Shown here: piece by piece, positions 28,290 to 31,307 of the stretch
Layout of the letters: each line of letters starts with the position of its first letter
Numbering within the stretch: the stretch's first letter is position 1
NCBI GenBank assembly: GCA_963693055.1
Contig: OY843751.1
Span: forward strand, 3,968,001-4,032,000
DNA from: a bacterium
Lineage (GTDB): Bacteria; Zhuqueibacterota; Zhuqueibacteria; Residuimicrobiales; Krinioviventaceae
DNA length: 64,000 bases
Direction: 5' to 3'
The notes under the pieces: model-generated
The model's input: the letters and a program-made list of their open reading frames with translations, nothing else
Databases searched by the model: none
Told to the model about the DNA's origin: nothing
Made by a program: the position numbers and the translations under genes

Positions 28290-29447
28290 ATGAAAAAATT
28301 ATTAATTCTATTATTATTATTCGCAAGTATCACTGCCGCGCAAACCTATGATTTCACCCTGACAGTTCAAAATCAACAGGTTAGTGGTTCTGATTTCATT
28401 TTTGATATTTATATGTTAAGGACCGGTTCGGCAGATATTTATTTGGGTGAATGTGATTTCGTTCTTACGTTTAACAATGGTAATTTTACCAGTCCGGTTG
28501 CTTCTGTTGTAACTGCGGAATCAAGAATAGCCACTTGGTATACATTATCCCCAACTATTGAAGCTACGAACAGGATAATATTAAATGTCCAAAAAGCACC
28601 ATTTAGCAACCAAACCGATTTTGATAATCGAGTACAGGTTATTGGTACATCCGGGAATGGTACGCTGATTGCGCAAATAAAGATCACCAACATTAGCAAC
28701 GCCGGTGGTACTGCGGGATTACAGTGGAGAACATCTGATCTTAATAAAACAAATATTCAGAGACTTGATAATACAGATCCCTGGGCGCTGGTTAATATTA
28801 CATCAAGCGGTACCTATACCAATCCATCGGATGCAAGTCTGCCGGTTAGTCTGGCTTCTTTTAATGCAACCAGCACCCCGCAAGGTGTATTGCTGACATG
28901 GGCAACCGAGAGCGAAATGAACAACCTGGGTTATATTCTGGAGAAACAATTGATCGGTGAAACCCAGTGGACACAGGTAGCCAACTATAAAACCCATGAC
29001 GAATTGAAAGGTCAGGACAATTCGACAACCCGGCATGATTATTCTTTTACCGATAAAAATGTACAGGCCAACAGTGAATATACCTATCGTCTCTCAGATG
29101 TAGACAAGGATGGAAATAGATCAGTTAAAAAAAGTATTGATGTAACGGTTACCGCAATTGTACCCAAAACTACAGCATTGCTGCATCCATATCCAAATCC
29201 ATTCAACCCCGAAACAAAAATCAGATACGACCTTGCAAAAGATGCCAATGTAGATCTGTTTATTGTAGATATATTAGGCCGCTCAGTGGTTAAACTGATT
29301 GACAATCAGCAAACTCAAGCGGGTTCTTATCATATCACCTGGAATGGTCAGTCTGCTGCAGGCAATTATGCAGCCAGCGGCACCTACTTTGTGGTATTTA
29401 ATGCTGATAATGTAAGACACATCCAAAAAGTTGTATTTTTGAAATAG
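28290..29447 (+). CDS. Secreted protein: cohesin-like beta-sandwich, Ig-like domain, T9SS/FlgD-Ig sorting domain
   Basis: Signal peptide; FDIYM...DFVLTFN; LPVSLASF..WATESEMNNLGY; PYPNPFNP...ASGTYF. Confidence 0.8.
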   Translation: MKKLLILLLLFASITAAQTYDFTLTVQNQQVSGSDFIFDIYMLRTGSADIYLGECDFVLTFNNGNFTSPVASVVTAESRIATWYTLSPTIEATNRIILNVQKAPFSNQTDFDNRVQVIGTSGNGTLIAQIKITNISNAGGTAGLQWRTSDLNKTNIQRLDNTDPWALVNITSSGTYTNPSDASLPVSLASFNATSTPQGVLLTWATESEMNNLGYILEKQLIGETQWTQVANYKTHDELKGQDNSTTRHDYSFTDKNVQANSEYTYRLSDVDKDGNRSVKKSIDVTVTAIVPKTTALLHPYPNPFNPETKIRYDLAKDANVDLFIVDILGRSVVKLIDNQQTQAGSYHITWNGQSAAGNYAASGTYFVVFNADNVRHIQKVVFLK

Positions 29448-29572
29448 TATCATATGACCAGAGGAGAAAAAGAAATTTATAAAACCCCCTAAAAATACAA
29501 CGGAGCGTCAGATCATTAATAAATTTGGTGATCTGTCATTCTGAAAGTAATAAAAGGGAAATATAAAAGCAA

Positions 29573-30397
29573 CTAATTGTTCTTTGAAAGATTCAACTGA
29601 CTCCTTTGATTTTTAATTTTATCAGGCAAAAGATCAACATATTGTTGTATGACACGTTTGGAAAGTCTTGCCAGCTGGCTGATTTGATCAAGGTTTTTAA
29701 TGTCATGCTTCCAAAGTAATTCAACACGATGGTAATCTTTGATATACCTGTCAACCGCTTCGTTGCTGTGTTTGGTTTTCAAAGCGATTTCGGGAGTGAG
29801 ATATCCCTCAAGATACAGAGTGATAATTTCGCGTTTATGAGTAATAGCGCCGGAAAGATCATGGATGTTGCCACGCGTTGGTAAGAGATGCCCTTCTTTT
29901 TGGATTTCATTTACATATTTACTGACAACGGCATCACAGACACCGAGTAACATAGCCAGGTCAAGTTGAGTAAGCAGAGCACCTTGATCAAAAGCTTCAT
30001 CAACCCAACGTTTGAGGCGTCTTTTCCTTAAAGTTTTGGAATCAAAACCATGCGCGATATGAGAAGTATCCTGATCAGTAATGAAAGAGAGGACAACGGG
30101 TTTCATTCGGGTAGCGGCAATACTTTTTCCGCGTTTGGGGTATTCATCGACAGGAACAGCCATCCAGACGAGTTGCCCATAGTGAATATGGTGCAAGTCA
30201 TCATCAATAGAGGAGACAAGGAAATAGTCATCAATGATTTTAAGGATATCATCAATGATGGCATTGGCAGTGATGGCTCCTTTGTCATAGCCATAGCTAT
30301 TCAAAAAGTTGTACAGTAGTAACTGCTTGAGATCTTTATCTTTAAGTCGTCTCATTTTTTTGAGTTGAATTTGTTCTTTAGTCAAAGGTTTACTCAT
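29573..30397 (-). CDS. DUF1670-like protein B
   Basis: RLKRWVDEAFDQGALLTQLDLAMLL...PTRGNIHDLSGAITHKREII.LYL.G; start set at ATG 30397 (AGGAGG RBS, overlapping the upstream stop). Confidence 0.8.
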   Translation of the reverse strand: MSKPLTKEQIQLKKMRRLKDKDLKQLLLYNFLNSYGYDKGAITANAIIDDILKIIDDYFLVSSIDDDLHHIHYGQLVWMAVPVDEYPKRGKSIAATRMKPVVLSFITDQDTSHIAHGFDSKTLRKRRLKRWVDEAFDQGALLTQLDLAMLLGVCDAVVSKYVNEIQKEGHLLPTRGNIHDLSGAITHKREIITLYLEGYLTPEIALKTKHSNEAVDRYIKDYHRVELLWKHDIKNLDQISQLARLSKRVIQQYVDLLPDKIKNQRSQLNLSKNN

Positions 30398-31229
30398 TTT
30401 CTTTGCCTCCTGATAGATGTTGAGGAATGGATTTTTTTTTCGCGTCGCCACCAGGTTCCGCAGGAGATAACAGATCGTTTAATCGCGTATTGTTTTGTTG
30501 AAGATAGGTTTGGTAGAGTTGGATATACTCGCGCACCAGGCGGTCGGATTTCTTTGCAATGAGTCGAATCTGGTTCGGAGAGAAATTTTCCTTGTATAAA
30601 AGGGCGATCTGCATAAAGTCAGCGAGGTAACGTTTGATGCTGGTTTCAGAATGATTGGTTTTTTGTTCTATTTCTGAAAAGGTATAACCTTTAAGATACA
30701 GATCAATAATGATGGTTTTATGAGACAGTCCGGGACCCATGTCATGTTTCATACCTCGTGTCATGATAAACATACCGTGATGACGGAGATGATAAATGTC
30801 ACGTTTAACAGTGGCCGGACTGGTGGTTAAAAGCATTGCCAGGTCTTCATAGCTGAGTAAAGCACCCTGATCATAGGCTTGTCGAGTCAGACGGGCGATC
30901 CGGTGTCGTCTAAGTCCGGCAAGGCCATAATTAGCCAGGGCTTGCAGATCTGTATTAAAGTCAATTAGTTTGAGACGGACCGTAAGCTTTCGGGTTAATC
31001 TGATATGTTTGCCGGCTGGTTCTTCAGCGGCAACAGCTTCATAAGCGACTTCACCTCCTGATAATGAAATGTTGGAATGTTCCTGAAAGTATTGGTCAAA
31101 TTGTTGATAGTAAGCTTCGGCAATAATAGGAGTCAAATTGAAATCCTGAGACAGTTTTTGGACAATAGCGTTTTTAGCTGTCTTGGATTCGAGTCTTTTT
31201 AAACCATAATTATTTTTAACATCTGCCAT
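30390..31229 (-). CDS. DUF1670-like protein A
   Basis: EPAGK, RIARLTRQAYDQGALLSYEDLAMLL...TRGMKHDMGPGLSHKTIIIDLYLKG; start set at ATG 31229 (AAGGAG RBS). Confidence 0.8.
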   Translation of the reverse strand: MADVKNNYGLKRLESKTAKNAIVQKLSQDFNLTPIIAEAYYQQFDQYFQEHSNISLSGGEVAYEAVAAEEPAGKHIRLTRKLTVRLKLIDFNTDLQALANYGLAGLRRHRIARLTRQAYDQGALLSYEDLAMLLTTSPATVKRDIYHLRHHGMFIMTRGMKHDMGPGLSHKTIIIDLYLKGYTFSEIEQKTNHSETSIKRYLADFMQIALLYKENFSPNQIRLIAKKSDRLVREYIQLYQTYLQQNNTRLNDLLSPAEPGGDAKKKSIPQHLSGGKENE

Positions 31230-31307
31230 AAGAATCTCCTTATTTCTGTTTTTATTAAAACAATGATTCCTATGGTCATATGCACTAAACTTTAAATAAT
31301 AAAATCC

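Follow-up and report, generated by a model that had tools for sequence, protein, structure and literature searches.

A site-specific insertion-sequence-like element carrying a DUF1670 gene pair in the last codon of a type IX secretion-tail gene

In a 64,000-nucleotide stretch of a complete, single-contig bacterial genome (Zhuqueibacterota, Krinioviventaceae; GenBank assembly GCA_963693055.1, contig OY843751.1, positions 3,968,001 to 4,032,000; below, the window, to which coordinates refer unless marked as contig coordinates), we found a mobile element of 1850 bp at 29444–31293, in the last codon of a gene whose product carries a type IX secretion tail. The element is a real, recently mobile insertion-sequence-like unit, one of six internally identical copies, and its only genes are a pair of DUF1670 (PF07900) paralogues, orfA and orfB. 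The two genes resemble no known DNA-cutting enzyme; thus, the element likely moves by means of an undescribed type of recombinase. Together with its relatives it makes up a real insertion sequence (IS) family that is active and widespread, has apparently not been described and uses an enzyme that we could not assign to any recognised type.

Ends, copies and empty sites

The target gene (28290–29447, forward strand) encodes 385 amino acids with a C-terminal T9SS type A sorting domain. Read in the direction of the host gene, the left junction is AA followed by ATA and an inverted repeat, and the right junction is the other repeat followed by seven bases and AA. The left AA (29442–29443, forward strand) is the left copy of a two-base core, and the last Lys codon of the target gene starts with it. 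Behind it come a 3-bp terminal extension, ATA (29444–29446, forward strand), and a sub-terminal inverted repeat downstream of the two genes (29447–29465, forward strand). At the other end, the sub-terminal inverted repeat upstream of the two genes (31268–31286, reverse strand) is followed by a 7-bp terminal extension that is common to all six copies and kept in relatives (31287–31293, forward strand), and then by the right AA and the rest of the original target, ATA (31294–31298, forward strand), as placed by copy alignment and empty sites. The repeats of the element are therefore set 3 bp and 7 bp inside its ends, between two AA dinucleotides, and they match at 14 of 15 positions (29451–29465 and 31268–31282), as had been noted in the original prediction.

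The ATA of the element and the G that follows it complete the Lys codon and then form a TAG stop, so that the element's first bases rebuild the end of the gene and the host protein is unaltered by the insertion. A hairpin with a T-rich tail (31308–31334, forward strand; RNA fold –17.9 kcal/mol, not among the output of a terminator scan) is likely the terminator of the target gene and is now cut off from it by the element. Both this hairpin and the three other tail genes in the window that end in AAA TAA had been pointed out before and were found as described.

The extent of the element follows from the alignment of the six copies and from a genome of the same genus (G085) that is empty at this locus and reads ...TTG AAA TAA TAAAATCC. 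The original prediction had set the boundaries at 29447 and 31285, between the two halves of a TA duplication. TA is present at 29445–29446 and 31286–31287, but the letters past both TAs are common to all six copies, so both TAs lie inside the element and no TA is duplicated; the empty site proposed at that time contains 11 extra letters that belong to the element.

The six copies have zero differences over the 1832 bp between the repeats, and the inverted-repeat core, extended to 15 letters, occurs only at both ends of all six copies; a search for further copies with the same ends, as had been proposed, thus gave six. In Logan contigs from three runs, the element is collapsed to one piece of 1854 bp (29442–31295) with 6.2–6.9 times the depth of its left flank. 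This support is not independent because the runs are a single sample, possibly the genome's own source. Of the 12 sites that are occupied in our genome, 8 were checked in G085; 7 were empty there with one core and 1 was not alignable across. At two of these sites, the left junction of the filled locus is AAATA and the right one is AAAAA or AAGTA, and the empty site has the right version, which indicates that ATA is derived from the element and that the crossover lies at AA.

A second element with a DUF1670 pair is present in the same genome in seven copies, one of them 92% identical (contig coordinates 507844–509736, 987148, 1348253–1350145, 2174026, 2264845, 5210905 and 6168684). Its protein is approximately 40% identical to that of the first element, and its genes run in the direction of the host gene, opposite to those of the first. 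It has a different inverted repeat, the same terminal plan with extensions of 3 and 6 bp, and the same target, and at one site a copy of it forms a stack with the first element. Decayed ends of the second element also stand alone, without DUF1670 genes, at tail-gene ends at contig positions 333440, 1730447, 3844075, 5684749 and 5975648; these are relics of older insertions, and at 333440 the end of the host gene is deleted. The genome also carries several further multi-copy repeats of 1.0–1.5 kb, with up to nine copies.

The DUF1670 proteins A and B

The products of orfA (30390–31229, reverse strand; 279 amino acids) and orfB (29573–30397, reverse strand; 274 amino acids) are DUF1670 proteins over their full length (Pfam E values 1e-58 and 2e-62) and are homologous to one another (hhalign probability 100), in agreement with the earlier description of two DUF1670 paralogues filling the element. 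A tree built from 54 chosen domains has a branch with 100/100 support that sets all B domains, together with the C-terminal halves of natural fusions, on one side. Both genes are under strong purifying selection: dN/dS was 0.03–0.09 for both genes in all 8 unsaturated pairs, and 2 further pairs were saturated.

All 50 A and B domains in a diverse set chosen for the comparison carry residues with the pattern D-x-G-x3-[ST]-H ... H-x7-Y; the four extra N-terminal domains found in forms of 930 residues have all lost these residues as a set. In an unselected set of 92 A proteins, we found R158 in 92, H170 in 87, H193 in 86 and Y201 in 89, and in the B set, the D, both H and the Y are each kept in 53 of 53. 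The acidic residues E128, D129 and D163 of A are invariant. Candidate catalytic sets are R158, D163, H170, K171, H193 and Y201 in A, and D180, H187, K188, H210, R217 and Y218 in B. Among longer members of the family, forms of 930–950 amino acids (P0124, P0131, P0134 and P0139) have three DUF1670-like domains, and forms of about 520 amino acids (P0167 and P0184) have a degenerate first domain.

We found no homology to DDE, DEDD, serine or tyrosine recombinases for the DUF1670 pair. Neither protein of the window has a Pfam or NCBIfam DDE match, a PF00589 match or a serine recombinase domain match, and there is no tnpB or other third gene in the element. The link drawn earlier to IS630/Tc1-mariner is not supported, with neither a TA duplication nor a DDE match. 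The IS110 DEDD transposase (PF01548) is absent from the element and from the complete genome, which rules out IS110 help for this genome; it is also absent from G085 and G169 and present in G167 and G168.

In the AlphaFold model of A (pLDDT 89), the N-terminal part is helical and includes a beta hairpin, and the protein also has a winged helix and two further helix-turn-helix units; the model of a natural fusion is poorer (pLDDT 78, pTM 0.46). There are only two or three beta strands per domain in the models and no RNase H-like domain. A Foldseek search of the model against the PDB gave no match at E 0.001, and residues 1–100 were barely covered by the fold searches; sequence searches of the PDB gave nothing except helix-turn-helix. 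Topo VI-A is among the structural matches at Z 5.6, level with many regulators, and a library of viral structures gave a single marginal match (TM 0.16). The catalytic fold of tyrosine recombinases is absent among the fold-search matches, although such searches do not exclude that fold.

The two genes overlap and carry a predicted slippage signal. A run of nine A near the end of orfA (30432–30440, reverse strand) has the orfB frame (+1) open across it. Among 53 A-B pairs, thinned by hand from 71, an A-run of at least 7 lies within the last 90 bases of orfA in 50, and the orfB frame is open from the A-run in all 50 (40 in +1 and 10 in –1, the latter mostly at A_AAA_AAG); as a background, 80 kb elsewhere contain 6 A-runs of at least 8. 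In addition, there are 25 natural in-frame A-B fusions, all from one clade. A transposase made by +1 slippage on nine A is described for IS1447 (PMC6211511). Taken together, the conserved A-run predicts an A-B fusion made by slippage; because orfB has its own start preceded by GGAGG, separate A and B are likely made too.

Target, two-base core and possible mechanism

To describe the junctions across the family, we used a set of relatives in which 80 loci plus one were reduced to 62 distinct loci with both ends and enough flank, and the rest were dropped. Of the 13 copies of both elements in this genome, 11 occupy the last Lys codon in genes with a secretion tail, one more has inserted at such a tail site where the second element ends, and one is beside a REP-like repeat; a nested insertion is expected, since each insertion rebuilds the target site. 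The REP-like palindromic repeat beside the off-target insertion occurs at contig positions 6088330–6088430, 4670834 and 327408, and in many copies in G085. Flanks are tail-like by motif in 61 of 63 relatives, and the insertion is always in one direction relative to the type IX secretion-tail gene, in many phyla. A stop lies directly behind the core codon in 60 of 62 relatives, and the two insertions at the motif with no stop behind suggest that DNA is read rather than a stop codon sensed. Conservation of the target tracks the first and second codon positions of K-M-x-x-x-K, with third positions free.

All 62 two-ended relatives have ATA at the left end; the search pattern contained ATA with two mismatches allowed, and the rows listed by a search made without it agree. 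The right copy in these relatives is ATA in 35, GTA in 18, GTG in 5, ATG in 2, ACA in 1 and AAA in 1. A five-base duplication, AAATA, was rejected, since the left ATA is fixed and the right copy follows the host's codon and stop. The inverted repeats that were to be looked for at tandem DUF1670 loci are present, and their flanks are a two-base core, not TA. Site specificity, the sub-terminal position of the repeats, this core and the slippage site that would fuse both genes were all missing from the original prediction.

The core is AA/AA in 59 of the 62 relatives, with AG/AG, CA/AA and AA/TG once each. Of 80 loci taken from a pattern scan of metagenomes for cores that end in G, 5 were true, and the 3 two-ended ones among these have CG/CG (register uncertain), CG/TG and AG/AG; thus, unequal cores occur in 3 of 65 two-ended loci. 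In this genome, 13 of 13 copies have AA/AA, and 11 of 11 tail-gene insertions are at Lys, as compared to 145 of 234 free tail-gene ends (Arg 58, Gln/Pro 8). In genome G145, the left junctions of one element are CA, CC and CA and the only readable right junction is CA; these insertions are at Gln/Pro ends, a type that makes up 8 of 234 ends in our genome, used here as a proxy. An element lineage therefore appears to keep its core and to pick matching targets, which favours core-matching recombination over duplication of the target. IS607 provides a precedent, with a circular intermediate and crossover at a two-base overlap that matches between element junction and target (PMC4058570).

Based on these data, we propose a mechanism, to which we give a probability of about 0.5, in which the element is an autonomous, site-specific IS. 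DUF1670 A and B would act jointly as the recombinase, probably as the slippage-made A-B fusion, with helix-turn-helix modules that would bind the inverted repeats and read fixed codon positions at the tail-gene end. The element would be excised as a circle joining the 7-bp end, the core and the 3-bp end, and would reinsert by strand swap at a matching two-base core, most likely via phosphotyrosine links. The core would have to pair and would thus be carried along with each move. A and B each have one Asp-His-Lys-His-Tyr set, and these would form two active sites per A-B, so two A-B units would cut four strands.

Several observations weigh against this reading. AA/AA in 59 of 62 relatives is also explained by a two-base duplication, and the counts overstate independence because the loci are related (31 of 80 are from Poribacteria). 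The unequal core pairs come from short-read assemblies and may be chimeric; the C-cores of G145 could come from an altered protein preference; two elements that are 97.5% identical carry AA/AA and AG/AG; and G055 and G057 have mixed left cores, on different elements. At site L162, G085 has AAA and the filled right copy AAG, which is uninformative as the genomes differ there. A circle or skip junction was not found in the Logan contigs of the three runs, which drop rare forms, and no RNA data set with the element was listed. With respect to the enzyme, D163 is kept in 73 of the 92 unselected A proteins, and hhalign against six tyrosine recombinases of the same genome gave probabilities of 0.3 and 0.4%. 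Structural alignments match only helix-turn-helix and winged-helix modules (best Z 6.5, root-mean-square deviation 1.8, 56 residues aligned; then Z 6.3), and in the model Y201 lies in a recognition-like helix, where an aromatic residue could be structural. Classical tyrosine recombinases have an overlap of 6–8 bases, in contrast to the two-base core here. The tyrosine chemistry raised as a speculation in the original prediction is thus left with nearly invariant Tyr and His and with no profile homology to tyrosine recombinases.

Target choice is also incompletely described. With a local 22-base profile, only 190 of 4278 genome sites scoring at least 6.5 are tail-gene ends, and five on-target insertions score low (6.8–13); thus, the local profile alone fails to explain site choice. 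When sites are weighted by score, 75% of the profile weight is on tail ends, on which the profile was trained. Used and unused sites are not fully told apart by the profile and by strict rules on motifs, and a Gly-x-Tyr motif 21 codons upstream is found alike in 55 of 63 used and 181 of 234 unused tail genes. Upstream contacts or selection must add to the local profile.

Two other explanations are each unlikely in our view. In the first, A-B is a metal-dependent transposase with no covalent intermediate, in which Asp/Glu/His would bind the metal; the ends are hydrolysed and joined to a target that is cut with a two-base stagger, and AA is a target duplication, made by copy-out/paste-in as in IS3. 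The predominance of AA/AA, the existence of AG/AG and CG/CG pairs, the invariant E128, D129 and D163 of A and the overlapping gene pair with a frameshift fusion, which is the IS3/IS1 plan, all fit such an enzyme. The three loci with unequal cores and the lineage-bound C-cores of G145 do not, the invariant Tyr and His of both subunits would be left without a role, and the models contain no RNase H-like domain. The second explanation, to which we give a similarly low standing, is that the role of the DUF1670 proteins is limited to binding the ends and the target and bridging them, and that a recruited host enzyme cuts (a topoisomerase, a Xer recombinase or the transposase of another element). 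All structural and family matches are indeed to DNA-binding modules, and the genome has seven tyrosine recombinase matches and several other multi-copy repeats of IS size. Different hosts in many phyla, however, have the same ends and a base-pair-exact target, both subunits retain polar residues that are unusual for a helix-turn-helix and that the accessory third domain has lost, and an IS110 helper is absent from 3 of 5 genomes tested.

A single-strand "peel and paste" pathway with one Tyr and two His, like that of the HUH transposases of IS200/IS605 or IS91, seems improbable: the strict polarity, the one-sided target motif and the His/His/Tyr/Asp set would suit it, but both ends have double-stranded inverted repeats, the non-coding regions have no conserved end hairpins, the two His are 23 residues apart rather than in an H-U-H arrangement, and the core-matching pattern is not accounted for. 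That an RNA encoded by the element guides target choice, as in IS1111/IS110, is very improbable, because the downstream non-coding regions (13 to 253 bases) are not conserved, the longest match to the element's own target is 7.0 as compared to 7.0 in shuffled sequence (49 elements, 1 at p ≤ 0.05) and targets vary freely at third codon positions, even though the end geometry, with 7 or 6 bp beyond one repeat and 3 bp beyond the other, is like that described for IS1111 (PMC11187229) and one subgroup appears to be placed in REP-like hairpins instead.

Distribution, comparison with known systems and significance

Of 167 genomes in the phylum, 33 have PF07900, in most cases as tandem pairs, and so does Methanosarcina acetivorans, which served as a control. 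When GTDB genomes were scanned, 253 stretches were confirmed, and the best 80 of these are in records labelled KSB1, Calditrichota, Ignavibacteria, Bacteroidetes, Poribacteria, Cloacimonadota, Marinimicrobia, Gemmatimonadota and others. Some genomes have many copies (39 DUF1670 domain matches in G169), and 1230 clusters at 50% identity match orfA. The anatomy of the element, in its ends and target, is the same across phyla, and further repeat types have the same target and ATA end; together with the six copies and the empty site, this bears out the earlier proposal of an IS-like element of apparently unclassified type. We did not find relatives in plasmids or in viral contigs (two queries for the latter). 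No paper naming DUF1670 or PF07900 was found in a search that took in neither supplements, subscription journals nor ISfinder, and no literature was found on IS elements at type IX secretion gene ends, although an obscure entry outside the searched literature is possible.

At the downstream end of L016, a third repeat type, as in L011, starts right behind the right core, which is another stack, made of different members of the family, at a rebuilt site. A subgroup with a TGCCA-W-ATGGCA-type repeat (L015, L018, L021, L022 and L301) appears to be placed in the loop of REP-like hairpins; inferred empty hairpins number 4, 6 and 7 in G120, G155 and G163, with 0 in a reversed control. This subgroup suggests target switching within the family. 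Outside the element, the window has a perfect TTGACA-17-TATAAT promoter (31375–31403) ahead of two tandem 770-amino-acid TPR proteins (31495–33804 and 34109–36412).

Among known systems, IS1111 elements are described as having sub-terminal inverted repeats, extensions of 7 (or 6) and 3 bp, a fixed orientation and a specific target (PMC11187229). Our elements resemble them in their extensions (7/3 in the first and 6/3 in the second, core excluded), in having no true long duplication, and in that some IS1111 members target REP-like repeats. In contrast to IS1111, there are two more core bases outside the 7 and 3 bp, two helix-turn-helix-only genes in place of a DEDD/RuvC transposase, and no conserved non-coding region or guide match. 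The core pattern fits the matching overlap dinucleotide of IS607 and may also come from a two-base duplication. IS607, in contrast, is not very specific in its targets and has a serine recombinase domain and TnpB, neither of which we saw here. It is also described as being without terminal inverted repeats (PMC6188088).

The two overlapping genes, with +1 slippage on nine A or a –1 frameshift on A_AAA_AAG, resemble the plan of IS3 and IS1447; here this is a signal in the sequence. In contrast to IS3, both genes are paralogues of one family, there is no DDE domain and the target is specific. IS3 family ends are TG...CA, and those of our element are not. The tyrosine recombinases (Xer, integrases, RIT, Tn554) also have inverted binding arms flanking a short spacer, and in 4 of 6 such enzymes of the same genome Arg...His...Tyr are spaced by 23 and 9 or 10, as compared to 23 and 8 for His...His...Tyr here; in contrast, the DUF1670 proteins have no profile homology to them and no Arg at the two catalytic Arg positions.

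TnsD of Tn7 recognises attTn7 through the conserved end of a coding sequence, and insertion leaves the gene product intact. The proteins of the elements described here would likewise read a gene end, and the product is left intact; in contrast, their target is hundreds of genes per genome, they insert inside the last codon and they have no TnsABC machinery. The likeness to IS630/Tc1-mariner is limited to helix-turn-helix modules of similar type (NCBIfam IS630 matches are far below the cut-off and in natural fusions only), and the differences are the missing TA duplication, repeats that are not terminal and the missing DDE domain. IS200/IS605 elements have an HUH motif, end hairpins and no inverted repeats, in contrast to the His residues 23 apart and the inverted repeats at both ends found here. 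Overall, the ends are as in IS1111, the core as in IS607 and the gene plan as in IS3, and the enzyme matches that of none of the three.

Taken together, we think it rather probable that DUF1670 is a fifth class of transposase or recombinase with no relation to the DDE, DEDD, HUH, serine and classical tyrosine enzymes, a helix-turn-helix-only, pseudo-symmetric A-B with its own Asp-His-Lys-His-Tyr active site and a two-base core. As part of the same claim, the evidence leans to the same degree towards an enzyme that finds a gene family through the fixed codon positions of a protein motif, with the stop codon repaired on landing. If this is true, it would add a new class of DNA-breaking enzyme to the handful of known transposase chemistries and would give a function to an unassigned Pfam family of bacteria and archaea. 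It raises the question of how a protein locates the members of a gene family when conservation of their DNA is limited to first and second codon positions. Finders of IS elements that are based on known transposases would miss DUF1670 elements. The small size (1.85 kb), the one-direction, base-pair-precise insertion and the intact target protein would make such elements attractive for genome engineering.

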